DNA of 64,000 bases. Source: an uncultured Spirochaetota bacterium. GTDB lineage: Bacteria > Spirochaetota > Spirochaetia > SZUA-6 > Fen-1364. The stretch lies in NCBI GenBank assembly GCA_963820525.1, contig CAWGAA010000001.1, positions 1,920,001 through 1,984,000 of the forward strand, in the 5' to 3' direction. The notes below the pieces were generated by a model. The model worked only from the letters and a program-made list of their open reading frames with translations. It ran no database searches and was not told the DNA's origin. How positions within the stretch are numbered: the stretch's first letter is position 1; each line of letters starts with the position of its first letter. Positions 34,216 to 50,298 of the stretch are shown here, in pieces. The position numbers were made by a program, and so were the translations under genes.

Positions 34216-35184
34216 CTACAAGCGGCCGTCAAGGGGACTCTTGATGGCGATGCCCGGCTTCTTCATGACATGGGTATAAATCATGGTGGTTGACACGTCG
34301 CTGTGGCCCAAGAGCTCCTGCACCGTGCGGATATCAGTGCCGGTTTCCAGCAAATGTGTCGCAAAACAATGGCGAAATGTGTGGCAGCCGATGGGCTTAA
34401 CGATACCGGCAAGTTTCCCCGCTCTCTTGACGGCGCGCTGAAGCACGGATTCATGGACATGATGTCTTCTGCGTGTTCCGGTTTGGGGGTCCGCAGATAG
34501 ACTCTTTGCGGGAAACACATATTGCCATGGCCACTCGGTTTCCGCCGAAGGGTGCTTTCTCGACAGAGCGTACGGAAGCTCGACACCCCCGAAACCTCGC
34601 TTGAGGAACTCCGTATGCAAGGCTTGCACCCTCACAAGATGCCTTTTCAGCTCCGCCACAAGTGCCACAGGAAGAACGGTAACGCGGTCCTTGAACCCCT
34701 TGCCCTCATGCACGGTGATCTGTTGCAGCTCAAAGTCGATATCTTTCACGCGCAGACTCAAACACTCCTTCAATCTCAGCCCGCTTCCGTAGAGAAGACC
34801 AGCCATGAGTCGAGTCTCTCCCGTCAGAACGGCCAACACTCTTTCAATCTCGTCGGCCGACAGCACCACGGGTATGCGTTTCGGGCGCCGGGCGCGGATG
34901 GCATCTATCGATCCGAGCTCTTTATGAATAACGTTCTTGTAGAAAAACACCAGAGCGTTGAGCGCCTGGTTCTGCGTCGAGGCGGAAACCCGTTCATTCA
35001 CGGCGAGATGATTGAGGAAGGCCTTGACTTCGACATCACCCATCGACTCAAGCGCACGTCTCTTGTGGAAATTGAAGAAGCGGCCAACCCAATTTACGTA
35101 GACTCGTTCTGTTTGAAGAGAGTAATGCCTCAGTCTCATTACATCTCTAAGATGATCTGAAAGCTGGTGCTTCTGTACGTCCAT
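34216..35184 (-). CDS. intI: Integron integrase (tyrosine recombinase)
   Basis: [26 protein letters not shown]...TTMIY, and the IntI-specific insertion [10 protein letters not shown]...WQYVFPA...RRHH; divergent from the cassette array. Confidence 0.95.
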
Positions 35185-35569
35185 CAACGATGTCCTCCTG
35201 GTTTGAAGTTCTGGACGGCAAATCCAAGTGATGGTCTAATAACCAGCGCTATATTCAGCAATGACGGCTGGATTATTCATTCTGATTGAAAAAGAGAGCG
35301 TTTTTGCATAGATAGAATGGTGATTTCGGGCGCGAGAATTGATTAAGAAGTCTATGGTAGGCAAATAGCGTGCATATCCAACTGCAATCGGCCTATTAAC
35401 GTACGGATAGATGTAATAAACTCTATAAGGGTTGCTTCCGAGCGATTCTGCGAATAGCAATACGCCAACGGAAGCAAGATGCACGGAAGCTATCGCGCGG
35501 AAAGGCTGTCATTCTAACGAATAAGCAGCGTTTCCCTGCGGAAAAGGTGGATATGAATGACTGAATGTC

Positions 35570-35710: not shown

Positions 35711-36565
35711 GTGAGATTCAACATCGTTAGTCTATCAATCATTCTATCAATCTTTGCAACATCCACATGGGCACAGACCAACGTTGAGACTTATGGGGTC
35801 ACCTATAGGACAATAGATGGCAAAGAGCTTCAAATGGATATTCAGAGGCCTCAACCTGTGGGTGTTCCGAAACCAGTAATCGTATTTCTTTGCGGTAACG
35901 GCTGGGGATATGAGAGGACTATAAACCGCGAATCATTCTGGTATGCTCTGGACCTTGCTAATGAACATGGATATGTCGCAGTCACCGTAGACTACAGCTC
36001 ATCAGCGCAGAACTCCAACGGCAGGCCAATTGGAACTTTTCCGTCCCAAATCTATGACGTTAAAAGTGCTATACGCTTTCTGAAGGCAAATGCAAAGCAG
36101 TACGATATCGATCCAACTCGGATTGGAGTCATTGGCTTCTCATCAGGAGGAAACTTGGCGCTGCTACTCGCGCTTACGCTTCCGGCAGATGGACTCGAGG
36201 GGCATGACGACTATCTCCAGTATTCCAGCTCAGTGCAAGCCGTTGTCAATCTTTCGGGGGCAACAGATCTAGTTAGTTGGAATAAAGAGCCATTTGTCAG
36301 TGCATATTTGGGAGGCTCTCTTCAGGCAAAGCCAGAACAATACAAGAGAGCTAGTCCCATCAACTATGTGAAGCCAGGCATGGCGCCGGTCTTAACCATC
36401 CATGGGGAAAAGGATATGATTGTCTCCCCCGATCAGGCACGGATGCTTGACGCGCGAATGAAAGAAGTGGGCGCGTCTCACACTTTGATTATTAAAAGTG
36501 ACTTAGGTCATAATGATGAGATTGATCAGAATGTATGGGATTTCTTGGAGAAAGCTCTAAAATAA
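35711..36565 (+). CDS. Cassette 1: secreted alpha/beta hydrolase (esterase/lipase, BD-FAE-like)
   Basis: RBS GAAAGGAG, signal peptide, DVKSAIRFL, GFSSGG nucleophile elbow, HGEKD, C-terminal His. Confidence 0.85.
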   Translation: MRFNIVSLSIILSIFATSTWAQTNVETYGVTYRTIDGKELQMDIQRPQPVGVPKPVIVFLCGNGWGYERTINRESFWYALDLANEHGYVAVTVDYSSSAQNSNGRPIGTFPSQIYDVKSAIRFLKANAKQYDIDPTRIGVIGFSSGGNLALLLALTLPADGLEGHDDYLQYSSSVQAVVNLSGATDLVSWNKEPFVSAYLGGSLQAKPEQYKRASPINYVKPGMAPVLTIHGEKDMIVSPDQARMLDARMKEVGASHTLIIKSDLGHNDEIDQNVWDFLEKALK

Positions 36566-36603
36566 CTTATCGGCGTAAAAGGACGAAAATTCAGCCAGGA
36601 GAG

Positions 36604-36719
36604 ACATAACATGCTGTTGGAGCAGACCGCTTAGGCTACGCGTCGTTACTAATTCATACGTGTGCTAAAGTAATTGTACCTGTATGATGCTGCGCGGCTG
36701 CTCAACAGCGTCGTTAGGC
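36604..36719 (+). other. attC site 1 (116 bp)
   Basis: ACATAAC-ATGCTGTTGGAGCAGACCGC...GCGGCTGCTCAACAGCGTC-GTTAGGC imperfect palindrome. Confidence 0.9.
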
Positions 36720-36798
36720 GTCCATAAAAATGGCTGTAGCGGTTTGAAAGAGTCTTTCACTCCTACAAGATTCAAGAACCTTACCTGGAAAGACACCA

Positions 36799-37278
36799 TC
36801 ATTCACCGGTTGATTCTGGTGGCTGCCAACCATCTGTACCTAGAAAAGCATTGACATCCACTCCTAGCCCCCTAGATAGTGCACATACTGATTGCCATAG
36901 AGGCTTTGTCCTGGTTCCTTGCTCAAGTTGCCGGATGGTACCGACATCTAGACCTGAGTTACTGGCGAGGCTTTCCTGAGTTTGCCTTGCTTGTTCCCGA
37001 AGACGCTTCAACCTAGAGCCAAATGGCTCGTCGCGAACCCATCGATCATGAATCCACGAGCAAGAAATCACCTCCATTGTGACGTTTTCATGATGGCGTC
37101 GCGAGGGAACAGGGGAATCTTTGGCTAGTAGGCCGCTGTCAATCAGCTCTCGATGAAGCTTTTCGTAGAAGCTGACATTACTTATATCTCCATAGCTACG
37201 GTGTCCCCAAGCTCCTTTTATGAGCCAATCTCCTTTCTCACCCTTGATCTTTGTAGGCCTAAGAATTAATGATCCCAT
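36799..37278 (-). CDS. Cassette 2: XRE/Cro-C1 HTH protein in inverted orientation
   Basis: C-terminal FGSRLKRLREQARQTQESLA...TIRQLEQG...LSRGLGV; RBS AAGGAGG. Confidence 0.8.
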   Translation of the reverse strand: MGSLILRPTKIKGEKGDWLIKGAWGHRSYGDISNVSFYEKLHRELIDSGLLAKDSPVPSRRHHENVTMEVISCSWIHDRWVRDEPFGSRLKRLREQARQTQESLASNSGLDVGTIRQLEQGTRTKPLWQSVCALSRGLGVDVNAFLGTDGWQPPESTGE

Positions 37279-37301
37279 GACAGCTCAATCCTCCTTGCAC
37301 A

Positions 37302-37331
37302 ACTATATCATATGTGGTAGAACTATGTCAA
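37302..37331 (-). promoter_or_regulatory. Cassette-internal promoter for the HTH gene
   Basis: TTGACA-N18-TATAGT with extended TG; overlapping GTAGAA(A)CTAT direct repeats. Confidence 0.6.
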
Positions 37332-37450
37332 CTGTAGTAGAAACTATTATAGGGCACTTCCGAAAAAGGAATAAATCGCTTGAACCAACAGCTTGTTACG
37401 GAGAAAATTGCCATAGCTAATAGTCGCCCAGATTGGCAATAAAGCTGGAC

Positions 37451-37567
37451 GCCTAACATGCTGTTGGAGTTGACCCCTTAGGTTGCATTTGGGAAGTGCG
37501 ACATCTCGTTGCTAAACCTCCGCTACCCTGCTTCGGGCGGCGGGGCAACTCAACAGCGTCGTTATCC
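37451..37567 (+). other. attC site 2 (117 bp)
   Basis: GCCTAAC-ATGCTGTTGGAGTTGACCCC...GGGGCAACTCAACAGCGTC-GTTATCC. Confidence 0.9.
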
Positions 37568-37996
37568 CCCCTGAATACTAGCTTTGTGCAACAGACATTC
37601 TTTTCAAATCATTTGATGATAAAAGATCCTACATAAGCGAACGACTTATAGCGACCGTCATGTTTGATCGATCAGACCTACTATCGAAAAAGCAGGGCGA
37701 ATATCTCCGGAAGTTCGGCGCCCCCCCTAACATATCCTCATGGCATTTTACCTGACCACACCGGCAGTTACCATATCCTACCGAAATATAATGTGTTTAT
37801 GGCCACCCGTCGTATTTTATCTATCAGTAGCTTGGCAGCAGTATTCTCCGGGGGCTTATAAGGAAGTCAACGCTACGCGTCATAAGACTTGCAAGACTTC
37901 ATAGATATATGGATAATGATTACCTTCACGCAAGAGATTGCATTGAACATTCTATTCGTGAAGTTTCGCAAAGCTGCGAACAGAAGGATTAATAGA

Positions 37997-38416
37997 ATGA
38001 CATCATGGGCATTCAACCCTCACTCTGGAGGAATAACGATATCCCCCACATTAAAAAGGGACATTGCCGAAAGGCTTGAAAAGCACGCGGCCTCGAATTA
38101 CAAAGGTCTGTATTTCCGGATAGACATCAGGTTCCGCGGGGTATTGTGCTATATAGACGCTTATAAAGAACCCAAACCGCCAGATAAGAAGCTTTTAGAG
38201 ATAAACCATGAGAGCATGCAAGCCTACACTGAGAGGATGCGGAACTTCCCAATACATATTGGCAGAATCCGGCATTTCGGAGATGACAGATGGAGCTATG
38301 CATTCTACACCTACAGCAATGAACGCTATGAACCTGCGACATTTGGAAATGGAGAATGGTTTGGTACCCCAGAAGAGGCGTTCGATATCGGTGCAAGGTA
38401 TCTCATGGATGAATAA
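37997..38416 (+). CDS. Cassette 3: hypothetical protein
   Basis: MTSWAFNPHSGG...RFRGVLCYIDAY...RWSYAFYTYSNERYEP; stop abuts attC3; the ORF may extend to 37889. Confidence 0.7.
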   Translation: MTSWAFNPHSGGITISPTLKRDIAERLEKHAASNYKGLYFRIDIRFRGVLCYIDAYKEPKPPDKKLLEINHESMQAYTERMRNFPIHIGRIRHFGDDRWSYAFYTYSNERYEPATFGNGEWFGTPEEAFDIGARYLMDE

Positions 38417-38424
38417 TTCAGGGG

Positions 38425-38541
38425 GGATAACAAATCGCTGGAGCAGACGCCTTGACCTACGCTTGAGAACTGGAAGCTACGCACGCTAAACTGAGGCCGC
38501 GGGGCGGTGGTCGGCGGCGCTGCTCAGCTCTATCGTTATGT
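38425..38541 (+). other. attC site 3 (117 bp, AAATCG subtype)
   Basis: GGATAAC-AAATCGCTGGAGCAGACGCC...GGCGCTGCTCAGCTCTATC-GTTATGT. Confidence 0.9.
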
Positions 38542-38611
38542 GGCCGAAACTAGAACTCAGCCGTCATTCTTGATCCCGGGCAATCTGCTGATCATACAGA
38601 ATGGAGAAGAC

Positions 38612-39205
38612 ATGAAGTTCCCGACAGAACTAATAGCCGCGCTTGTAGGCGGTCTCTTCACACTGCTCGTGGCGGTCATCGCCTCTTTGATACAAGGGAG
38701 ACAATCCACAAGAATCCTAAGACTTCAGCTTGAGCATCAGGACAGGAAGGAGGCTACCTCTCAGAGAAGAAAGTACATTGAAGAGCTCTTTATTGCAGTT
38801 AAGCACTGGTTCGACATGATATTCATTGACAACATGAATTACCGCAGAGTTATGGATGGCAAGTTGACCTATAACCAAGCCCTCGACCTCACAATAAAGA
38901 ACATGGGGGATCAAGATTACGACTTTAAAAGAATCGAAATGATTATTTCTCTGTATTTCCCTACTCTAGAGGAAGACCGAAACGCAATAATGGATACTCA
39001 AAGCAGAGCAAGAGATATCATAGATGAATTTAAAAGAACCTACGAAAACGGAACGTACACGAGTGCGGAATCCTCCCTCCAGCTTGGGGGGGTTATTGAT
39101 GAGCTTCTCAAAAAGTACCGGACGCTGGAGGACGCTATCTTGAAGTTGGCAAGAAGCGAATCCAGAAGTTACCCTTTTCTCTCGGAAGGCAGGTCGGTGG
39201 AATAA
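38612..39205 (+). CDS. Cassette 4: hypothetical protein with N-terminal transmembrane helix
   Basis: RBS GGAG, MKFPTELIAALVGGLFTLLVAVIASLIQ, then a helical domain. Confidence 0.75.
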   Translation: MKFPTELIAALVGGLFTLLVAVIASLIQGRQSTRILRLQLEHQDRKEATSQRRKYIEELFIAVKHWFDMIFIDNMNYRRVMDGKLTYNQALDLTIKNMGDQDYDFKRIEMIISLYFPTLEEDRNAIMDTQSRARDIIDEFKRTYENGTYTSAESSLQLGGVIDELLKKYRTLEDAILKLARSESRSYPFLSEGRSVE

Positions 39206-39337
39206 TATTCCAATTGTCACAAAGGCTATTCCTATCGGAAAGTTCGGAAAGAATGATTGCCTATTGTTACGCTATTGCTCTTGCTCCAAGTATGATGATG
39301 ATTGTTCTATCCATTCATATTGCTGTACAAGGCGGCC

Positions 39338-39454
39338 ACATAACATGCTGTTGGAGTTGACCGCCTAGGCTACGCTTCGTTGCCAACAACTACGCGCGTT
39401 GGAGCTTTTGTTACTTGGATGATTCGGGGCGGCAACTCAACAGCGTCGTTAGGC
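39338..39454 (+). other. attC site 4 (117 bp)
   Basis: ACATAAC-ATGCTGTTGGAGTTGACCGCC...GGCGGCAACTCAACAGCGTC-GTTAGGC. Confidence 0.9.
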
Positions 39455-39510
39455 GCAAATTGAGGATCATGAGTGGAAGTCCGACTGCTTGACACAAAAG
39501 GAGACTTGTC

Positions 39511-40428
39511 ATGAATGTTCTGGACTCTATCGGAAACACGCCACTGATTCAGCTGAGTCGAATCGTGCCAAGTGGCGCCGGCCATATTTTCGTCAAGCTC
39601 GAGATGTGTAATCCAACAGGCAGCATGAAAGACCGCATGGCGCGTGCTGTTATCGAAGCCGCCGAGCACGGGAATCGGCTGACTCCCGGTGGAACGGTTG
39701 TCGAATACACAGGCGGTACGACTGGGATCTCGCTCGCATTCGTCTGTGCTGCGAAGGGATACAGTATAGAGATCGTGTTTTCTGATGCCTTTAGCCCGGA
39801 AAAAGCCCAAATAATGAAGGCGCTGGGAGCTCACGTTACAGTTGTGCCAAGCGGAGGCAAGGGAATCACTCAGAGTGTCATCATGCGAATGATAGAGCAG
39901 GCAAGATCCATCAGCCAAAGGCCAGGCCACTGGTGGTCGGACCAGCTAAACAACAGGGACGCGGTTGGGGCCTATCACGCACTCGGGGAGGAAATCTGGG
40001 AACAAACAAAGGGCAGGGTGGATGCATTCGTTCAAGCCGTAGGTACGGCACATTCAATTCATGGGACAATGGAGGCACTGTCTGGGCATAAGCAGAACAT
40101 TCACGTGGTGGCGGTAGAGCCCGAGGAATCAGCGGTACTCTCTGGCCGCGCACCTGGATCGCACAGCATCGAAGGGTCGGGTATCGGATTTGTGCCCCCT
40201 TTGTGGGAACCAGATAAAGTACACGAGATAATGACGGTCTCCACTCAAGAGGCCGAGGCAATGGCACGGCGGTTGGCGCGAGAAGAGGGGATTTTCGCCG
40301 GCACTTCGTCAGGTGCGAATGTAGTTGCAGCACTTCGACTCGCTGAGCGACTGGGCCCCAAAGCAACCGTTACGACGCTAATGGTTGACTCAGGCCAACG
40401 CTACCTAAGCACTGGCGTGTTTCGGTAG
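39511..40428 (+). CDS. Cassette 5: PLP-dependent cysteine synthase family protein
   Basis: IGNTPL, KLE..NPTGSMKDR, AREEGIFAGTSSGAN, DSGQRYLS. Confidence 0.9.
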   Translation: MNVLDSIGNTPLIQLSRIVPSGAGHIFVKLEMCNPTGSMKDRMARAVIEAAEHGNRLTPGGTVVEYTGGTTGISLAFVCAAKGYSIEIVFSDAFSPEKAQIMKALGAHVTVVPSGGKGITQSVIMRMIEQARSISQRPGHWWSDQLNNRDAVGAYHALGEEIWEQTKGRVDAFVQAVGTAHSIHGTMEALSGHKQNIHVVAVEPEESAVLSGRAPGSHSIEGSGIGFVPPLWEPDKVHEIMTVSTQEAEAMARRLAREEGIFAGTSSGANVVAALRLAERLGPKATVTTLMVDSGQRYLSTGVFR

Positions 40429-40499
40429 TTCCATATATCGAAGCAGTTGCCGGTTTGCGCCTAACATCTATAACAACGCGTCTGTCAAGAAGACGAAAG

Positions 40500-40641
40500 C
40501 TCCAAAACCTCCTTCGAACACTACTATGATATAGCCGGTCCTACCGGAAACATCTATACGCCCTCATCGGGGCATGATCACCTGCAGCAGGGATGTCACA
40601 ATCAAATCGCGTGCCTGTAGCGGCACATGTTAGGCACGTGC
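40500..40641 (-). ncRNA. Putative bridge RNA / seekRNA of IS copy 1
   Basis: GCCUAACA-[GUGCC/GGCAC hairpin]-CGAUUUG matches both halves of the target. UAUAGAUG-[CCGGU/ACCGG hairpin]-UAUCAU matches the circle junction. Transcript ends are not known. Confidence 0.8.
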
Positions 40642-41700
40642 TCACCCCTGCCTCGGTGAGACCTTCAATGGCTCTCGATATGGCTCGTTTTTCTTGAGGA
40701 CCCAAAAGGTGGATTCCGATAGATGACGGGCGAGCGCTCCGATGGCCACAGAGGATCCTTTGCGACCGCGAATCCTCAGATACAGCCTGGAGACGTGGCG
40801 GCCTATCCAGCCGCGCTGTGCGTGGTGCGCTGAGATTGCATTTGCCGCCTCGATGAAGGCCCATTTGAGATATTGATTGCTCTCGGTCCTCATTTTCCCA
40901 TAGTGGCACTTGCCACCGCTGGAGCTCACCCGTGGAGTGGTGCCGCTATAACTGCTGAACTGTGAAGCGGTGCAAAACCGCTCGATGCAACCGACCTCTC
41001 GATCGATAACGATTACCAAAATGTCCCCGACGCCAGGAAGAGTCTTTAGCAGCTGCATGCTGGGGGTTAGCGAGACCTGGCTGCGGATGCGCTCCTCCAA
41101 AGAGGATATCTGAAGGCTGATGAAATCCAGAAGTTGGAGATGTTGTTCCAAGCAGCGAGCTGTCTCCGGGGGAAGCCGGGACACGGCAGAGCTCAACCAT
41201 GATCGTCCCCGCTGTGAGAATACCTGGCAACCATCCTCAGCAGACAAGGCGTACTTGGCAAGGATCGAGTGAATGCGGTTCTTCAAAGACGTTCGCATCC
41301 TGCACAGGACCATTCGTGTGCGAGGCAATTCGCGCTGATCACGTAGGCCAGATGGCGGCAGCCAAACGGTAGGAAGGCTGCCAAGCCTAAGGAGGGTAGC
41401 AAGACCACCGGCGTCCAGTTTATCGGTCTTGTTCACATTTCCCATCAACAGTTTGGCCTTGCCGGGATTTGTTAGCAAAGGAACACACCCTGAAGCTTCG
41501 ATTTCATCAGCAATCCAGTACCAATTGCCTACGCTCTCCAAAGCAACCGGGGTGCCAGAGGGGAGTCGTGAGAAAAAGCAGGAGATGGTTCCCGGAGCAT
41601 GATTGATACGGACTCGATTCAGAACCTTGCCCTTCGGGTCCTGGATCTCGAGCTGAGAGTAGTGCTTATGAGCATCACACCCAACACTCAACGACTGCAT
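40642..41700 (-). CDS. IS110-family DEDD recombinase/transposase
   Basis: GCDAHK, ALESVG, KTDKLDA (DEDD), LPGVG, SSSGGK serine motif; RBS GAGGAGG. Confidence 0.95.
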   Translation of the reverse strand: MQSLSVGCDAHKHYSQLEIQDPKGKVLNRVRINHAPGTISCFFSRLPSGTPVALESVGNWYWIADEIEASGCVPLLTNPGKAKLLMGNVNKTDKLDAGGLATLLRLGSLPTVWLPPSGLRDQRELPRTRMVLCRMRTSLKNRIHSILAKYALSAEDGCQVFSQRGRSWLSSAVSRLPPETARCLEQHLQLLDFISLQISSLEERIRSQVSLTPSMQLLKTLPGVGDILVIVIDREVGCIERFCTASQFSSYSGTTPRVSSSGGKCHYGKMRTESNQYLKWAFIEAANAISAHHAQRGWIGRHVSRLYLRIRGRKGSSVAIGALARHLSESTFWVLKKNEPYREPLKVSPRQG

Positions 41701-41969
41701 TCTGCACCTCCTCATGGGCGACGTAGCCCTACGGAGCACAATAGTAGCAAGCGATGCAGCGCTGTTATATTATCAAATCGTTGCAGTTGTCCCCTAGAAA
41801 GCTGTGTCGAACAGCTGATTCAGCCTGGCAATTCCATTGGGTGCAGTGCTGATGCGGCGGGGCAACTGAACTCTATGTTATGAGGCGCAAGTTTTTTTAA
41901 GACGTTTTGCGTCGGCAGCTTGTGCGAATCTAGTCAGTATGATATATACCTTATTTTGGGGGTAATTCC

Positions 41970-43187
41970 ATGATTCACAAGCTATTGCTAAAGAACTTCA
42001 GAGCTATTGAACAACAGGAGATAGAACTTGGAAAAATTTCAATCTTTACTGGTCCCAATAATAGCGGGAAGTCTACTCTTATCTACGGACTTCTCACCCT
42101 CAAAAACATGATTCTCAACTCAAACCAAAGTCTTGATGGTTTTTTGAACCTGGGATTCCTTAGCCTAGGTGGTTTTAGCCAGACAGTTTATTTTAAGGAC
42201 GAGAATAGGCAGATCTCAATAGGTATTGGAAGCAAGACTGAAGAAATATCTTCAGAATATATGGCTACACTTGGAAAAAAAGCAAGTACACTTAATATAC
42301 ATGCACATGAACCATTAGAAATCAGCTTAGATCTCAATGTTACTTTCCCATACCCAGCTAATGCTAGCACAGGTGCAGAGCTACAGACAGACTACGGAAA
42401 GCTCAGCATTACGTGGAATGGTATAACGCCTACGCTAACGGCCGAGAGTGTTGAGGCTGATTTAGTTCCGAAGCAGAAGGAATTGCTCCGCAAAGTTTCG
42501 CTTTCTATAACGAATCCGCTAGAAGAACTAAGATCGGTTGATTTCATTCCTCTTCGACGTGGTTTTATAAAACCTACTTACTCATCTGTTCCCCTACAGG
42601 CGCAACTTCTAAGCGATGAAGAACTCGCAACGCTCCTTGCTACAGATCGTGACTTAGAAGGAAAGGTTGCCTTCTATCTTGAAAAAATCTTGGATCGGAC
42701 TTTTTCTGTCAGGTCAACAATTGGCACTGCAAATTTTGCCCTTCAATCAAGAGATAGAGTAACAGGATTTGTCAGCGACCTTGTTAATGAAGGATTTGGT
42801 ACTAACCAGCTTGTTACAATATTAACAAAGGCTCTACGGAAAGAAGTTTCAACTATCTGCATTGAGGAAATAGAGATCCATTTGCATCCTGAACTCATGA
42901 ACAAAGTAATATCAGTGCTGATCGATATCGCAAACGAAGAGAACAAACAATTTATTATTTCTACTCATAGTGAGCATATTGTTTCTTCAGCTCTAAACCA
43001 TATTTCAACAGGTAAACTTAATAGTAGTGACTTTAAACTTTACTATCTCCACAAGGAAAAGAAGCGTGCAATTGTTGAGCAGCAGATAGTAAATGAAAAA
43101 GGTCAAGTAGAAGGCGGACTTAAAAGTTTCTATGATACAGATCTGAAGAATATTAGAGACTTTTTTAACATCAAAAACGAAAAATAA
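41970..43187 (+). CDS. Cassette 6 gene 1: ABC/AAA_15-21-type ATPase with DUF3696-like C-terminus
   Basis: LKNFRAI, GPNNSGKS, GFGTNQ, IEEIEIHLHP, STHS, NEKGQVEGG..SFYD. Confidence 0.85.
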   Translation: MIHKLLLKNFRAIEQQEIELGKISIFTGPNNSGKSTLIYGLLTLKNMILNSNQSLDGFLNLGFLSLGGFSQTVYFKDENRQISIGIGSKTEEISSEYMATLGKKASTLNIHAHEPLEISLDLNVTFPYPANASTGAELQTDYGKLSITWNGITPTLTAESVEADLVPKQKELLRKVSLSITNPLEELRSVDFIPLRRGFIKPTYSSVPLQAQLLSDEELATLLATDRDLEGKVAFYLEKILDRTFSVRSTIGTANFALQSRDRVTGFVSDLVNEGFGTNQLVTILTKALRKEVSTICIEEIEIHLHPELMNKVISVLIDIANEENKQFIISTHSEHIVSSALNHISTGKLNSSDFKLYYLHKEKKRAIVEQQIVNEKGQVEGGLKSFYDTDLKNIRDFFNIKNEK

Positions 43188-43654
43188 TGAACCTCGTTGT
43201 CAATGAGTGGCTACTCGAGTTTTTTTTGCCAGGTACACTTCCAGAGAATTATGAAGAGCTTTTTAGGTTTTTTGACAGTGTTCAAGAATGCAAACGTAAA
43301 ATAATAATTGGACGGGAGACACAATTCACTATTAAATTCTACCGTTTCATGAAATTATATGGCAATAATCTATCATTCAAGCAGAATTACGTTAAACTCC
43401 ATCGACTTTTATTTATCGACACTACCCGTACAATTATAGTTGAAAGACATGAAATTAAAAATATTCCTGATAAAGATATGGAAGGTGTTCATAGTGATGA
43501 TCGCTATCTACTTGAGCTTGCAGCCTCAGTTCCTAACAGTATAATTATATCAACTGATAATCGGCTTATAGATGCATTAGCAAGAATGCCACAATACCCA
43601 ATTATTCATTTGAAGGATTATTTAAAAACTTTCAATGAAAAAGGATGTGAATGA
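43187..43654 (+). CDS. Cassette 6 gene 2: PIN-like domain protein
   Basis: TAATG coupling; MNLVVNEW...DDRYLLELA...IIISTDNRL resembles PIN acidic motifs. Confidence 0.6.
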   Translation: MNLVVNEWLLEFFLPGTLPENYEELFRFFDSVQECKRKIIIGRETQFTIKFYRFMKLYGNNLSFKQNYVKLHRLLFIDTTRTIIVERHEIKNIPDKDMEGVHSDDRYLLELAASVPNSIIISTDNRLIDALARMPQYPIIHLKDYLKTFNEKGCE

Positions 43655-43659
43655 GCGCC

Positions 43660-43777
43660 TCATAACATGCTGTTGGAGTTGACCCCTTAGATTACGTTTG
43701 GAAAGTCTTAGATTACGCTGCTAAACTGCCGCTTACCTGCTTCGTGCGGCGGGGGCAACTCAACAGCGTCGTTATGT
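43660..43777 (+). other. attC site 6 (118 bp)
   Basis: TCATAAC-ATGCTGTTGGAGTTGACCCC...GGGGCAACTCAACAGCGTC-GTTATGT. Confidence 0.9.
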
Positions 43778-43966
43778 GGCGTTGGCGCCGAAGGCAAGGT
43801 GTCCATGCGCTCCAGCCGGTGAACATGCTGGCGGCGGAGATCTTACACTTTGCGGTGGCAGACGGGAATGATCTACTTCGCGGAAATTGGGCCGTCGCAT
43901 CGCATCGACCATCAGGCCGACGCGGAGGTCTGCGCTCTCATGCCGGATTTGTCGGGGAGGTGACAA

Positions 43967-44626
43967 GTGAGCGACCTATACAAGAAGCGATTCGCAGAGC
44001 TTCAGCTACAGATGGAGCAGCTTCTCGCCTCAAAGAAGTCGGCTTTCGACGAGTACCTACATAAGACTCGCGAGGAGATTGATGGCAATCTCCTACTCGA
44101 GTGGACGGTGAAAACAAGAAGCCTGATTGGCAAGGCGTGCGGAATGGAATCGGAACACTACAAGGAGTTCTCTGAGAACGATGCCACAGGCGCGTACAGT
44201 ACTTACCTAGCCACGCTCGAACGTCTTCGGGCAATCTTCCTTGCCGCAAAGGAAGATTACGAAGGCGGGTATCTGAGGACCACCAGATCACTCGTACAGG
44301 CGGACCTTTTCGACTCCGAACTGGAGCAGGCGACGTCACTGATTGACGCTGGCTACAGGCTACCTGCTGCTGTCGTGGCTGGAGTGGTCTTGGAGACGTC
44401 ACTCAGAGAGCTCTGTACACGGGAAGGGCTGCCGCACGGAAAACTTGATAAAATGAATTCGGATCTGGCCAAAGCTGGAAAGTACAACGTACTCCAGCAG
44501 AAGCGAATCACTGCGCTCGCAGATATCAGAAACGCAGCTGCTCACGGCAATCCTGAGAATTTCACTGATCAAGACGTGATAGACATGATTCGAGATGTCA
44601 AACGGTTTCTGGCTGAACACGCGTGA
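43967..44626 (+). CDS. Cassette 7: HEPN/DUF4145-like protein
   Basis: RBS GGAGG + GTG; AAVVAGVVLE..LR and RNAAAH (RxxxxH) motifs. Confidence 0.75.
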   Translation: MSDLYKKRFAELQLQMEQLLASKKSAFDEYLHKTREEIDGNLLLEWTVKTRSLIGKACGMESEHYKEFSENDATGAYSTYLATLERLRAIFLAAKEDYEGGYLRTTRSLVQADLFDSELEQATSLIDAGYRLPAAVVAGVVLETSLRELCTREGLPHGKLDKMNSDLAKAGKYNVLQQKRITALADIRNAAAHGNPENFTDQDVIDMIRDVKRFLAEHA

Positions 44627-44738
44627 TGCGGACGCGTGATTCGTTGAGCAGCAAATGGGTCATTCAGCGAAGAAGCGACTTTTGCAGCCCAAGCGCCACA
44701 TAACATCTATAACAACGCGTCTGTCAAGAAGACGAAAG

Positions 44739-44880
44739 CTCCAAAACCTCCTTCGAACACTACTATGATATAGCCGGTCCTACCGGAAACATCTATACGC
44801 CCTCATCGGGGCATGATCACCTGCAGCAGGGATGTCACAATCAAATCGCGTGCCTGTAGCGGCACATGTTATGCACGTGC
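44739..44880 (-). ncRNA. Putative bridge RNA / seekRNA of IS copy 2
   Basis: Identical to copy 1 except the target guide GCAUAACA (T at 44872 on the plus strand). Confidence 0.78.
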
Positions 44881-45798
44881 TCACCCCTGCCTCGGTGAGA
44901 CCTTCAATGGCTCTCGATATGGCTCGTTTTTCTTGAGGACCCAAAAGGTGGATTCCGATAGATGACGGGCGAGCGCTCCGATGGCCACAGAGGATCCTTT
45001 GCGACCGCGAATCCTCAGATACAGCCTGGAGACGTGGCGGCCTATCCAGCCGCGCTGTGCGTGGTGCGCTGAGATTGCATTTGCCGCCTCGATGAAGGCC
45101 CATTTGAGATACTGATTGCTCTCGGTCCTCATTTTCCCATAGTGGCACTTGCCACCGCTGGAGCTCACCCGTGGAGTGGTGCCGCTATAACTGCTGAACT
45201 GTGAAGCGGTGCAAAACCGCTCGATGCAACCGACCTCTCGATCGATAACGATTGCCAAAATGTCCCCGACGCCAGGAAGAGTCTTTAGTAGCTGCATGCT
45301 GGGGGTTAGCGAGACCTGGCTGCGGATGCGCTCCTCCAAAGAGGATATCTGAAGGCTGATGAAATCCAGAAGTTGGAGATGTTGTTCCAAGCAGCGAGCT
45401 GTCTCCGGGGGAAGCCGGGACACGGCAGAGCTCAACCATGATCGTCCCCGCTGTGAGAATACCTGGCAACCATCCTCAGCAGACAAGGCGTACTTGGCAA
45501 GGATCGAGTGAATGCGGTTCTTCAAAGACGTTCGCATCCTGCACAGGACCATTCGTGTGCGAGGCAATTCGCGCTGATCACGTAGGCCAGCTGGAGGCAG
45601 CCAAACGGTAGGAAGGCTGCCAAGCCTAAGGAGGGTAGCAAGACCACCGGCGTCCAGTTTATCGGTCTTGTTCACATTTCCCATCAACAGTTTGGCCTTG
45701 CCGGGATTTGTTAGCAAAGGAACACACCCTGAAGCTGGACCTACCCCGATTTCATAGACACATGGTTAAGCAGTATTTTAGAGGGGTAAGGAAAGGCA

Positions 45799-46089
45799 AT
45801 GGCAGACACGAGGAAGAAATACACCAAAGAGTTCAAGCTCGATGCCATCCGGCTCCTGGAGTCAGGGACAAAGCCGGGACATGAGATTGAACGGGATCTG
45901 GGAATCGGCAGCGGACAGATCTACCGCTGGAGGAAGCAATTCAGTGAGGACGGGACACGAGCTTTCCCAGGCAACGGCAGGTCCCGTGACGAGGAATTGG
46001 CCGCCTTGCGCAAAGAGAACAAGGAGTTGCGTGAGGAACGGGACATTTTAAGAAAAGCAACAGCCATCTTCTCCAGACCCCCGAGATGA
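45799..46089 (+). CDS. IS3 transposase OrfA
   Basis: RKKYTKEFK, HTH, LREERDILRKA. Confidence 0.92.
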   Translation: MADTRKKYTKEFKLDAIRLLESGTKPGHEIERDLGIGSGQIYRWRKQFSEDGTRAFPGNGRSRDEELAALRKENKELREERDILRKATAIFSRPPR

Positions 46090-46955
46090 AGTACCAGATC
46101 ATGAGTAAACAGCGGGGAACCCACGGCGTGGAGAAGATGGCGGAAGTATTGGGAGTAGCGCGCAGTGGGTACTATGCCTGGCTCGACGGTAAAGAGAGTG
46201 CACGAGCACTCGAGGAGAAGGAGCTGATCGAGCAGATCCGGAAGATCCAGGGCGAGGTGCGTCACAGCTACGGAAGCCCGCGCATGCGGGAAGAACTGCT
46301 GAGGCGTGGGCGGCATGTGGGGAAGAACCGAGTTGCCCGAATCATGAGAGAGAATGCCCTTGGGCCGCAGCCGAAGAGGCGGTTTGTAGTGACCACGCAC
46401 TCGAAAGACGGCCAGGAAGTGGCCGAAAACATAGTGAACAGGAACTTCGAAGCCTCCGCGGCGAATCGCGTGTGGGTGTCCGACATAACCTACGTTGCGA
46501 CAGCCGAAGGGTGGATGTATTTATGCATCGTACTGGATCTGTACTCACGTCGAGTGGCGGGCTGGTCGCTGAGCTGCGAGCTGAGTGCCGAGCTGGTGCT
46601 GACGGCGGTAGTCATGGCCGCGATTCGTCGCCGCCCGCCGCGGGGACTGTTGTTTCATTCCGATCGCGGTGTGCAGTATACCAGCGGTCAGTTTGAAAAG
46701 TTTGCCAAAGGGCACGGATTCATTCAAAGCATGAGCCGTAAGGGCGACTGTTGGGACAACGCGTGCGCGGAGACGTTTTTCAAGACCTTGAGAGCAGAGT
46801 TGATTCGGGACAAGATCTACCGAAGCAGAGAGGAGGCCAGGAGAGCAATATTCGAATACGTGGAGATCTTCTATAATCGCAAGCGGCTTCACTCGTACCT
46901 CGGCTACCTCACACCGACCGAATATGAGGAGCTCGAGGAGCGGAAGACGGCATGA
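46086..46955 (+). CDS. IS3 transposase OrfB (DDE)
   Basis: [39 protein letters not shown] overlap with OrfA. Confidence 0.95.
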
Positions 46956-47618
46956 TTGACGATCCAAGCCAGAGTGAGGAAAAAGCCTTGCGCGTAGAGG
47001 GCCGTGGTTGCGTTTTCGGAAGGCAGGTGGTGTTTGGATACCCCCCCGAAACCGAGACGCAGGTGCAATTCAGGGTGTCCACGAAATCGGGGGAACTCCA
47101 AGCTTCGATTTCATCAGCAATCCAGTACCAATTGCCTACGCTCTCCAAAGCAACCGGGGTGCCAGGGGGGAGTCGTGAGAAAAAGCAGGAGATGGTTCCC
47201 GGAGCATGATACGGACTCGATTCAGAACCTTGCCCTTCGGGTCCTGGATCTCGAGCTGAGAGTAGTGCTTATGAGCATCACACCCAACACTCAACGACTG
47301 CATTCTGCACCTCCTCATGGGCGACGTAGCCCTACGGAGCACAATAGTAGCAAGCGATGCAGCGCTATTATATTATCAAATCGTTGGAGCAGTCGCCTTG
47401 GACGCCCGTCGGAACTGTTGGTTCAGACCCGTAAGGAAGACCGATCTGTGGTTGTAGTCGGCGGCGCTGCTCAACTCTATGTTATCTGGACTTGCTGGCG
47501 TTCCCCTGACCGCCGGTGAACCTCGGCGCCGTCTTCGACTGACCTCACGCTCCCCTTCTGGGTACCATATCGAAAGGTTGGCGAAACGTTCGTTTGACAA
47601 GTGAAAAGGAGGATGTGC

Positions 47619-49274
47619 ATGAAACCCGAGAGAGTCTTTGCTGTTCTTGCCTTTGCGATCCTGCTGGTAGCTTCGGCCGGCGCAGCCGCGTCCGACCCCC
47701 TCGACACGTGGAGCACAAACTTTGGCGCAACCACGGACGTTGCCGCGGCGGGGATAACCACGTGGATATCGGGGACACGCGTGTCAATCGACATGACAAA
47801 CGTCAATTCGGGTGGCAAGTCCGTCAGGACCTCCGGACCGGTAGGCGACTCGCATATACTGCAGCCGGTCTTCGCGTTCGGTGGCTTGACGGGCAGTGAC
47901 AAGATCGATCTTTCGGACAAGACCCTGGACGTAGAGATGTTCGTGCCAGGCGACTCGCCGCTGTCCTGGCTGGCCATCGAGGTGACGGCCGGGGATAGCT
48001 ACATCATTGTCAAAGGCAGCATAACCCCGCAAAAGGGCCGTTGGTGCAGCTACGAGGTGAATATTGCTATGGTTCTCGCGCTGGGTAGCTGGCAAACGTA
48101 CGACTGGATGCATTCTCCCAGCATTTCTTCCCATGGGGACGCCGTCAATCTGCTCAAATCCGCGCAGGCCATCAAGATAGACGCACAGGCCGATCCGGTG
48201 GTCAATAAGGCGATCGATGCCTATTTTCTGATTGACAGTGTGGGCTGGAAACCTTCCGATGCCATTGCCACGCCAGAGTTCTCTGCCTCCACGAGCGCCG
48301 AGCGCCCGGATGGCTTTCCCCGCCGGTTCCATGTGGAGGGGAACGCCTTTGTCGATCAGGCCGGTCAACGGAAGGTGTTCCGAGGCGTATCGATGCCCGC
48401 GGTTCGCCTGGCCATGATGCCGGACCCAGCCCAGCCGGAATGGAACGAGCACTATTTCCAGGTCATGGCGAATTGGGGCGCCGACGTCGTTCGGGTGCCC
48501 GTTGATCCCTTCAGTCTGCACCACGTTCCATGGGATTCCCTGACTACCGCCCTGGATCAGACCATCGCGTGGGCGGGCAAGAACAGGATGTACGTCATCA
48601 TCGACTTCCACTCCGGCGGCTCGATCGCGGAAAACTGGTACAACGGCTACAAGGAAGATCCCTATCTTACGACAAGTCTGAAGGAGTTCCTGGATTTCTG
48701 GGGCAAGATTTCCCTTCGCTATGCCAACAACGACATTGTTGCCTTCTATGAATTGTTCAACGAGCCGGCCAACCCGGCAAGTCCCCCGACAAAAGCCATG
48801 TGGGTGACATGGAAAGGGATTGCGGAGCAGGCCATCGCCGTCGTCCGCGCCAACGCTCCGGAGAAAACCATCCTGGTGGGCGGGTTGGCCTGGGGATACG
48901 ATCTGTCATTTGCCGCGGATGCGCCGGTTGCAGACGGCAATGTTGGCTATGTGACCCATCCCTATCCAAAATCGGCAATCTGGATCAGCAAGGATTGGGA
49001 TGACGCGTTCGGGAGACTGAGCGAGCGCTGCCCGGTCTTTGCGACGGAGATCGGCTATCAGAACGACATGAAGGATTTCGTAGACATCACGGTGAATGGC
49101 ACGCGCTACAGCAAGGCAATCGTTGATTACCTCGAGAAGCACCTCATCAGTTGGACCGCGTGGTGCTTCGATAACGTCTGGTTCACCTGTCTTCTGGCGG
49201 ACAGGAATTTCACGCCGACGCAGTCCGGAGCGTATTTCCGAGATCGATTGCTGGCCGCGAAACGGTCCCCGTGA
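47619..49274 (+). CDS. Secreted glycoside hydrolase family 5 with N-terminal accessory domain
   Basis: RBS AGGAGG, signal peptide, WGADVVRVP, IIDFH, ELFNEP acid/base, HPY, ATEIG nucleophile. Confidence 0.88.
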   Translation: MKPERVFAVLAFAILLVASAGAAASDPLDTWSTNFGATTDVAAAGITTWISGTRVSIDMTNVNSGGKSVRTSGPVGDSHILQPVFAFGGLTGSDKIDLSDKTLDVEMFVPGDSPLSWLAIEVTAGDSYIIVKGSITPQKGRWCSYEVNIAMVLALGSWQTYDWMHSPSISSHGDAVNLLKSAQAIKIDAQADPVVNKAIDAYFLIDSVGWKPSDAIATPEFSASTSAERPDGFPRRFHVEGNAFVDQAGQRKVFRGVSMPAVRLAMMPDPAQPEWNEHYFQVMANWGADVVRVPVDPFSLHHVPWDSLTTALDQTIAWAGKNRMYVIIDFHSGGSIAENWYNGYKEDPYLTTSLKEFLDFWGKISLRYANNDIVAFYELFNEPANPASPPTKAMWVTWKGIAEQAIAVVRANAPEKTILVGGLAWGYDLSFAADAPVADGNVGYVTHPYPKSAIWISKDWDDAFGRLSERCPVFATEIGYQNDMKDFVDITVNGTRYSKAIVDYLEKHLISWTAWCFDNVWFTCLLADRNFTPTQSGAYFRDRLLAAKRSP

Positions 49275-49311
49275 AGATGCCGAGAGGGATATTTGCCCCG
49301 TGAAGCGTTCG

Positions 49312-49375
49312 GGGACATAGGTAACAAAGAATTCCAGGGACATAGGTAACACTTATTCTGGGGACATGGGTAACA
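49312..49375 (+). repeat. Three direct repeats GGGACATRGGTAACA (IS481 end transposase-binding repeats)
   Basis: Copies at 49312, 49337 and 49361, just upstream of the IS481 transposase RBS. Confidence 0.8.
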
Positions 49376-49399
49376 CTTTCCTCGAGGAGGTGGCCTCCC

Positions 49400-50298
49400 A
49401 TGCCGTGGAAAGGGGTTACCGTGAGCGAGCAGAGAGAGAATTTTCTCCGCGACTACCATCTTCGGTACTACAGCCTTTCGGATCTGGCCGAACGCTATAG
49501 CATCTCAAGGAAAACAGCCTACAAATGGATTGATCGCTACGAGCAGCACGGAAAGGACGGACTCTAGGATCAGTCGCGCCGACCTTACAGCTGCCCGTGG
49601 CAGACTGAATCGTACATCGCGGAAGCTTTGATTGAGCTGAGGTTGGCTCATCTGAGCTGGGGTCCGCGGAAGCTGCTAGATGTTCTTGAACGTCGACATC
49701 GGCGTTGGGATCTGCCAGCTGCTTCCACGGTGGCTCAAATACTCAGCAACCATGGACTGATACGTCATAGAGTTCGTCACCGACGGGCTCATCCCGGGTG
49801 CCCCCAAAGTGTCGCGCAAGGACCCAACGACATCTGGGGGGCCGACTATAAGGGCCAGTTCCGGTTGGGAAATGGTGAGTACTGCTTCCCGCAGACGGTC
49901 AGCGATCTTGATGCGCGCTACCTGCTGGGGTGCGACGGGCACCAGTAGGTCAGCAAGGATATGACAAAGGCCCATTTTACAGGGCTTTTTCACACCTACG
50001 GTTTACCCCGGCGGATTCGCACCGACAACGGGGCCCCCTTTGCCTCCAACGCCTTGGGAAGGCTCTCGGGGTTGTCGGTGTGGTTCATAATGCTGGGGAT
50101 CTACCCTGAGCTCATTGAACCAGGACAACCTCAACAGAATGGGATCCATGAGCGGATGCATCGCACCTTGAAACAGGAGACCACGCACCCGCCGGCTCGC
50201 AATATGCAGCTGCAGCAGAAGAAGTTTGATGAGTTCCGAAAAGAGTTCAACGAGCAGCGGCCCCATGAGGCCCTGGGAATGAAGCGGCCGGCAGAGGT
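49400..50298 (+). pseudogene. IS481-family transposase pseudogene (two in-frame TAG, 3' truncated)
   Basis: MPWK...ISRKTAYKW, WGPRKL, W.ADYKG, IRTDNG.PF, ERMHRTLK, N..RPHEAL; TAG at 49565 and 49946. Confidence 0.88.

Follow-up and report, generated by a model that had tools for sequence, protein, structure and literature searches.

The locus considered here raises the question of how two nearly identical copies of an insertion sequence (IS) in one genome came to carry different guide bases, each matching the target of its own copy. It lies in a window of 64,000 nt (the whole stretch of DNA analysed; contig CAWGAA010000001.1, positions 1,920,001 to 1,984,000, from an uncultured Spirochaetota bacterium), in which a short cassette array extends rightwards from an integron integrase gene. 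Each of two split attC sites of this array holds one copy of the same IS, which encodes a DEDD transposase and resembles the attC-targeting IS1111 group of the IS110 family, reportedly named by Tetu and Holmes in 2008. The explanation that we regard as probable is an ordinary choice of target guided by RNA, with two guide variants in circulation. An IS1111-type RNA-guided IS would target attC sites through a seekRNA- or bridge-RNA-like transcript encoded in its 3' tail, with a second loop reading the IS ends. In this lineage the third guide base is naturally dimorphic, guides with C pairing with GCCTAAC-class attCs and guides with A with xCATAAC-class ones. The two copies would represent two guide variants, diverged by about 0.6%, each with its own derived changes and each in the attC class with which its guide pairs.

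The single-nucleotide polymorphism (SNP) at the centre of this question is 40633 G versus 44872 T. The minus strand of copy 1 reads GCCTAACA at 40628-40635, equal to the plus-strand flank at 40459-40466 in all eight positions, and that of copy 2 reads GCATAACA at 44867-44874, against ACATAACA in the flank at 44698-44705 (7/8). The changed guide base faces C40461 in copy 1 and A44700 in copy 2. In terms of pairing, the guide C of copy 1 faces a G in the flank, within an 8/8 match that becomes longer if U-G wobble is allowed, and the guide A of copy 2 faces a T, with G-T and U-G wobbles further out from the 7/8 match. Each guide allele is complementary to the flank of its own copy, and an earlier note on this DNA had given the same match counts and facing bases.

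The two copies are 99.4% identical. They differ by eight substitutions (40633, 40873, 41015, 41050, 41352, 41356, 41559 and 41764) and one 4-bp indel, in agreement with the roughly nine differences originally counted. Six of the substitutions fall in the transposase gene (three synonymous, three not) and two are non-coding (40633 and 41764). From 40462 to 40872 the SNP is the only difference between the copies, and its description as the sole difference in the 175-nt tail holds; presented as the single non-coding difference, it is so for the 3' tail but not for the whole element, the 5' end of which differs at 41764 G versus 47367 A. A naive chance of a concordant guide difference (8 substitutions x 3 eligible guide positions / 1309 x 1/3) is about 0.006, a figure that overstates the case because 40633 is hypervariable and dimorphic in the lineage. 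The site toggles often, and a difference there is therefore not rare. It is better to say that, unless pairing matters, the concordant and the discordant arrangement are equally likely.

The SNP lies within a predicted structured RNA. RNAalifold analysis of an alignment of 32 relatives yielded a conserved fold of 24 pairs, of which 17 show compensatory changes; its first module overlaps the final codons of the transposase gene (stop codon at 40642-40644). The SNP occupies the third position of the guide 8-mer, and in this fold it remains unpaired within the 5' strand of the internal loop. By seekRNA and bridge RNA nomenclature, the predicted guide bearing it would be the right-target guide. 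The earlier assignment to a left target guide is supported as to a target guide, given an unpaired loop strand that changes with the flank, but "left" applies only in the orientation of the window and becomes right in that of the IS. The 3' strand of the same loop (CGAUU-UG-AU) would comprise the left-target guide, the core and two bases matching the IS left end, resembling a handshake guide. In the second loop, the 5' strand covaries with the right junction (AGGTGTT in L005 and L018, AGATATG in L017 and L019, ATACATG in L047 and L053), and a search of the 3' strand for a right-donor guide gave only a short, unconvincing match (AUC opposite GAT), on which we make no claim.

As judged from the fold and the covariation, the loop strands match both target strands, with the top-strand complement first. 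In the seekRNA of IS1111 members, the complement of the top strand lies 5' of the bottom-strand match, and both overlap at the insertion point (PMC11187229). Given the same strand order and overlap, the RNA encoded here has the seekRNA arrangement of IS1111 members. The two-loop bridge RNA, with its core and handshake bases, also corresponds to the arrangement observed at this locus (PMC11208160, PMC13626964).

Coupling between guide and flank was assessed in relatives drawn from one genome per species (59 loci), from the host's family and from metagenome contigs retrieved with an 18-nt pattern. The pattern scan returned 119 stretches, most of them chance matches, of which those with AACATG upstream were kept (38 rows, L146 being false). 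A recognisable attC-type guide was present in 52 rows and a readable right junction in 37 of these; with four duplicates removed and four hand-read rows added, 37 elements were tested, and 15 rows without a junction and 13 without an attC-type guide were left out. The hosts of the relatives are environmental metagenome-assembled genomes (MAGs) of Spirochaetota, Chloroflexota, Acidobacteriota and others, and the flanks of close relatives are of the GTT-A/G-G/T-G type.

The analysis revealed a family-wide coupling. Across the 37 elements, complementarity of the six variable guide bases to their own flanks amounted to 138, against a mean of 117.4 with shuffled flanks (p ~5e-5, a value that overstates the case because the rows are related to one another). 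At the SNP position, the 28 elements with an xTAAC guide presented the guide/flank combinations C/G (14), A/T (8), C/T (4), A/G (1) and A/C (1) (Fisher 0.005), and the corresponding counts in the close clade of 22 were 8, 8, 4, 1 and 1 (p 0.043). Neighbouring guide positions covary too (L141 and L196, for example, have an A opposite the T that in copy 2 faces a G), and in the non-attC relatives L031, L017, L047 and L032 the guide strand changes with the flank, in matches of 8-9 nt. The other guide strand behaves similarly: two variable bases of the left-target guide change with the left junction in L131 (CT), L005 (CA) and L136 (GT), and the lineage appears to vary its left-target guide in step with attC classes as well. 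Both guide strands vary exactly at the bases facing variable attC positions, which suggests that within populations of the element there is a limited set of guide alleles suited to the surrounding attC classes. This idea is testable, and it bears on the spread of such elements through integron arrays and on mismatch tolerance in guide design.

In a side comparison of the left-target guide, the two variable bases (TT, CT, CA, GT or GA) were found to correspond to the attC spacers AAATCG, AAGTCG, ATGTCG, AACTCG and ATCTCG (window 40601-40609 and loci L131, L005, L136, L018 and L113).

Taken together, these counts point to a guide-flank coupling that is real but soft, with the SNP site as a hot spot. 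Among 34 close relatives the site is C in 19 and A in 15, next to an invariant AACAUG. On a maximum-likelihood tree (32 rows, with the guide hexamer masked and three short rows left out), its A/C state switches at least 10 times. The tree contains five independent guide-differing pairs, in which the flank changed in the same direction in 3.4 on average, in the opposite direction in none and showed no difference in 1.6. A census of relatives for guide-flank covariation, suggested by the earlier note, recovered the coupling (p ~5e-5), but not a significant result for the tree pairs, and the genome itself contributed only two copies.

The tree also informs the history of the two copies. Their sister is L131, which carries guide A, and guide C is for this reason probably derived; the ancestral guide was probably A, with C arising on the copy-1 line. 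With 13 relatives as outgroups, copy 1 is derived at 41352, 41015 and 40873, and copy 2 at 41764, in the 4-bp deletion and in the insertion of an IS3-family element, three sites being ambiguous. The assignment at 41764 follows from the copy-1 state being present in seven of the eight relatives whose left end was read and the copy-2 state in none. Both copies have changed since their common ancestor, so that neither is a fresh copy of the other. Whether the guide changed before or after insertion is an order that cannot be read from two copies. We infer that pairing at the SNP base caused the site choice and that the guide change preceded insertion. The genome studied here may have been the place of insertion, or else a previous host of the cassettes; the cassettes may have arrived with the element already inserted.

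Both alleles of the SNP are real. In the run data, which consist of contigs from four runs (X1, X3, X4 and X5; Logan) and not of raw reads, both 40633 alleles occur in contigs of X3, X4 and X5, representing three studies, with T-allele depths of 59.3 of 105, 5.9 of 14 and 83.8 of 137.1, respectively. The copy-2 allele is the sole difference between one X4 contig and the window over 40473-40668. X1 presents G alone at 40633, in a collapsed mosaic contig that provides no evidence that T is absent there.

The X1 contig was also noted for its composition: over 40379-41497 it has the flank and guide allele of copy 1 together with the alleles of copy 2 at five coding sites and the IS3 junction, and at 41374 it carries a C that is absent from both copies. 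It would represent either a collapsed mosaic or a recombinant strain, and it neither supports nor contradicts the assembled phasing.

Several results weigh against guided choice. The genome offers only two copies, which makes within-genome statistics impossible, and given a difference at the hypervariable 40633 their concordance has a chance of about one in two. Without these two copies the close-clade table becomes 7, 4, 2, 7 (p 0.09), and the sign test on independent pairs is non-significant (median p 0.25), the pairs being too few. The flank matches at the SNP position in 22 of the 28 relatives and mismatches in the other six, so that a mismatch at this base is no bar to insertion. In the same genome, three to four sites with the exact TAACAAATCG motif are empty, among them a complete attC (C3:855602) that matches the copy-2 guide in 8/8 positions, against 7/8 for the site that copy 2 occupies; such empty sites argue against saturation and against any simple rule here by which the best site wins. 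The phasing of SNP and flank is known from the assembly alone: it is beyond the reach of the Logan contigs, and in X1, the best holder of the region, the contig mixes copy-1 and copy-2 alleles. Lastly, Rfam 15 returned no match at E up to 1 over 36000-50000, which signifies only that no available model fits and is nothing against the fold. The main rival reading is a coincidence at a hypervariable site, in which the base would toggle between A and C for whatever reason, mismatches would be tolerated and the concordant arrangement would have arisen by luck. The near-even split of the two states and their repeated switching on the tree speak for such a coincidence, as do the mismatched relatives, the loss of significance once the window's copies are removed and the better-matching attC left empty. 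Set against it are the family-wide permutation result, the lack of any opposite-direction pair on the tree, the covariation of neighbouring guide positions in L141 and L196, and the reduction of insertion by guide mismatches in tested family members (PMC11187229; PMC11208160). Since both the family data and these experiments on related elements indicate that pairing matters, we regard guided choice as the probable explanation and coincidence as a possible but clearly minor one. The pairing of a guide variant with another attC variant, which the earlier note had put forward, is the best-supported reading and accords with known seekRNA and bridge RNA behaviour, with the proviso of soft coupling and six mismatched relatives in 28.

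The remaining explanations are less likely still. A copy might have entered a mismatched site and its guide later mutated to fit its own flank, an outcome that would be favoured in the IS lineage if re-excision needs a match between guide and flank. Movement of ISEc11 did require donor flanks matching its seekRNA (PMC11187229), mismatched insertions do occur among the relatives, and copy 1 has acquired other substitutions (41352, 41015 and 40873) besides its probably derived guide C. We nevertheless deem this sequence of events unlikely: the resident copy has no visible gain, so that a chance hit (about 0.006 on the naive estimate) would be needed, excision of IS621 is reported in a preprint to be independent of target complementarity (10.64898/2026.08.31.748434), and two copies cannot show the order of events. 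The earlier note had also raised a rewriting of the guide from the target, at or after insertion. This proposal draws on the concordance itself and nothing else, and it is hardly credible when six of 28 relatives keep a mismatch at the SNP base and others are mismatched at neighbouring guide bases, when copy 2 stands at 7/8 and not 8/8 with an 8/8 attC for its guide lying empty, and when the described reaction swaps strands at the core and leaves the guide-encoding DNA untouched (PMC11208160, PMC13626964). The data exclude only an obligatory and complete rewriting, an exclusion that does not extend to an occasional or partial process. In broader terms, an adjustment of the guide to its flank in situ, through target-templated correction or strong lineage selection for self-matching copies, is most improbable; if true, elements would track attC diversity faster than by random mutation and target choice. 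An assembly or read error at the SNP could be argued from the phasing being known through contigs only and from X1 showing only G in its collapsed contig, and is very unlikely in view of the T allele in contigs of X3, X4 and X5 and of the frequency of both states among relatives.

The arrangement of the integron bears on guided choice as well. Right-hand remnants of the two split attCs were detected at ~41850-41890 and 47374-47492 with a profile of the array's own attCs, and none of the five intact attCs of the array holds an IS copy. Both occupied attCs have the spacer AAATCG, and the four array attCs with ATGCTG are empty. Four of the five intact sites present the spacer AACATGCTG, which is incompatible with the left-target guide, and the attC at 38422 has AACAAATCG, yet GGATAACA on the guide side. 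The attC at 37448 is empty despite an 8/8 match of its R'' side to the copy-1 guide.

Outside the window, another attC-like site with the exact TAACAAATCG motif was observed at C3:839844. Separately, contig C1 of the same genome contains, at ~684000-817000, more than 50 attC-like sites of the form TAACA[A/T]GTCGTTGCAGCTGACC over ~130 kb, in what looks like a second, giant cassette array. A search of the genome for IS copies found none in this C1 array, where the spacers are AAGTCG or ATGTCG, and none anywhere beyond the two in the window.

Several known systems resemble the one described here. ISKpn4, ISPst6 and ISPa25 (Siddiquee et al. 2024, PMC11187229) share with it a DEDD transposase, a long downstream non-coding region, an RNA with the top-strand complement first and insertion in one orientation at one end of attC. 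They differ in that the transposase studied here is at most 33-34% identical to anything in a plasmid collection (ISKpn4 being compared by description only) and in that the hosts are the environmental MAGs mentioned above. The best protein matches in that collection, at 32-34% identity, are annotated only as IS110 family, and the non-coding tail had no match in it. With the bridge RNA of IS621 (Durrant et al. 2024, PMC11208160; PMC13626964), the common features are two loops guiding target and IS ends, a core of 2 nt present in donor and target alike, guide strands extending two bases into the partner in a handshake-like manner and family-wide guide-target covariation. In contrast to IS621, the RNA here lies in the right end and not the left, the order of the target-loop strands is reversed, the core is TG and not CT, and the subterminal inverted repeats are long. 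An IS621 preprint describes tolerance of half-matched substrates and copy-and-paste via a single-stranded circle (10.64898/2026.08.31.748434), which would fit a soft specificity and leave room for copying errors in a daughter copy. Group IIC-attC introns also home to attC by nucleic-acid pairing, but they are retroelements with another mechanism and without a DEDD transposase.

The closest precedent is the "natural reprogramming" described for ISEc11 and ISXne4, in which the target-matching RNA segments likewise differ in step with the targets; their transposases are 72% identical and their targets have 3 of 13 bp in common (PMC11187229), whereas here copies 99.4% identical differ by one guide base and one target base within one genome. 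Natural guide-target covariation is how bridge RNAs were discovered. Literature searches combining attC with bridge RNA and IS110, or with seekRNA, found no study of guide versus attC variation, and among the titles listed for natural variants of the target-binding loop none dealt with it. What is new in this work is the environmental attC-targeting lineage of IS1111 type and the one-base example within one genome. The known mechanism is unchanged by the finding, which offers a clean natural case of one-base retargeting of an RNA-guided recombinase inside one genome and a soft specificity rule for an uncharacterised, environmentally widespread attC-targeting lineage.

The assignment of the element is supported by its structure (Table 1). 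The copy-1 transposase scores 195 bits (cut-off 140) against the NCBIfam model NF033542, "IS110 family RNA-guided transposase", and as in the IS110 family and IS1111 group it carries a C-terminal Transposase_20 domain. The expected long downstream and short upstream non-coding regions are present (175 nt, 40467-40641, and 75 nt, 41701-41775, respectively, in copy 1), as are subterminal inverted repeats. These read, in IS orientation, TATAACAGCGC on the left, seven bases in from the core, and GCGTTGTTATA on the right, adjoining the core, and both are kept in the relatives. As in the IS1111-attC group, insertion occurs at a fixed position of attC and in one orientation: both copies lie after the R'' box, at TAA/CA/AATCG.

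The element ends at 40467 and not at 40462, the additional bases common to both copies belonging to attC. In IS orientation the junctions read LT-TG-ATAAT... on the left and ...TATAGA-TG-RT on the right (LT and RT, left and right target). The core is taken as TG (CA on the plus strand) because no other repeat is compatible with every element, L005 among them, and it gives back the normal 5-nt attC spacer. An alternative boundary, defined by a GAT/ATC triplet repeated at both ends, was ruled out, as the two junctions of L005 have GGT and GAC, respectively. On the plus strand, the target before interruption would read xxxTAA-CA-AATCG, in which the R'' box precedes a 5-nt spacer of the normal kind; the intact attC at 38422 has the same layout. 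Empty attCs in contigs of three runs from different studies present ...TAA followed by the window sequence from 41774; empty versions of the two particular sites were not seen in the four runs, whose contigs show no joint across the element.

Table 1. Coordinates of the IS copies, their predicted guide RNA, target sites and associated integron features in the window.
Feature	Position	Strand	Evidence
IS copy 1, intact, 1309 bp counting one CA core	40467..41775	-	copy-to-copy identity; CA at both junctions
DEDD transposase gene of copy 1, 352 aa	40642..41700	-	PF01548 8.4e-13, PF02371 3.9e-17, NF033542
IS copy 2, inactivated by IS3-family insertion and 4-bp frameshift deletion opposite 41604-41607	44706..47378	-	
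Second non-coding difference, in left subterminal inverted repeat	41764 G vs 47367 A	-	copy-copy comparison
Copy-1 target half-site, GCCTAA + core CA, attC R'' box	40459..40466	+	
Copy-2 target half-site, ACATAACA	44698..44705	+	
Copy-1 left-target half-site, core CA + AATCG, then rest of split attC to ~41890	41774..41780	+	
First RNA module (predicted): outer stems, internal loop with both target guides, inner hairpin	40585..40652	-	RNAalifold
Guide of copy 1 (predicted), GCCUAACA, 5' strand of loop; SNP at 40633	40628..40635	-	sequence, fold, covariation
Guide of copy 2 (predicted), GCAUAACA; SNP at 44872	44867..44874	-	
3' strand of first loop, CGAUU-UG-AU	40601..40609	-	identical to left junction
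5' strand of second loop, UAUAGA-UG-UU, matching IS right end, core and two flank bases	40549..40558	-	
Integron integrase gene	34216..35187	-	NCBIfam TIGR02249, 449 bits vs cut-off 265
Four intact attC sites	36601-36732, 37448-37580, 38422-38554, 39335-39464	+	nhmmer, profile from array's own attCs
Fifth intact attC site	43657-43788		nhmmer, profile from array's own attCs
IS3-family element in copy-2 transposase gene, ~1.36 kb	about 45737..47099	+	Pfam HTH_Tnp_1 + rve
IS3-family open reading frames	orfA 45799-46089, orfB 46086-46955	+	

Further observations concern the ends of the element. As read from the sequence only, joining of the IS ends would place TTGACA (minus strand, 40488-40483) 17 nt before GATAAT (41770-41775), the latter consisting of the second core base and the first five bases of the left end. 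The TTGAC box is kept in the relatives. Such a joined arrangement would be a putative junction promoter of a kind known in the IS110 family; no circle junction of the IS was seen in the contigs. At the right junction of the metagenome locus L113, GAT stands between ...TATAGGT and the usual GTTAGGC flank, three additional bases separating the element end from the attC box.

The IS3-family element that interrupts copy 2 ends in an imperfect inverted repeat and is flanked by a short duplication, AGC or AAGCT; the same junction was found at 41497 in a contig of run X1. Finally, the cassettes adjoining the IS copies (41970-43654 and 43967-44626) look defence-related. One of them encodes an AAA_15 / AAA_21 (AbiEii-like) ATPase and a partner of 155 aa that belongs to no family; the product of another matches HEPN (RiboL-PSP) weakly, with a score under the Pfam cut-off.

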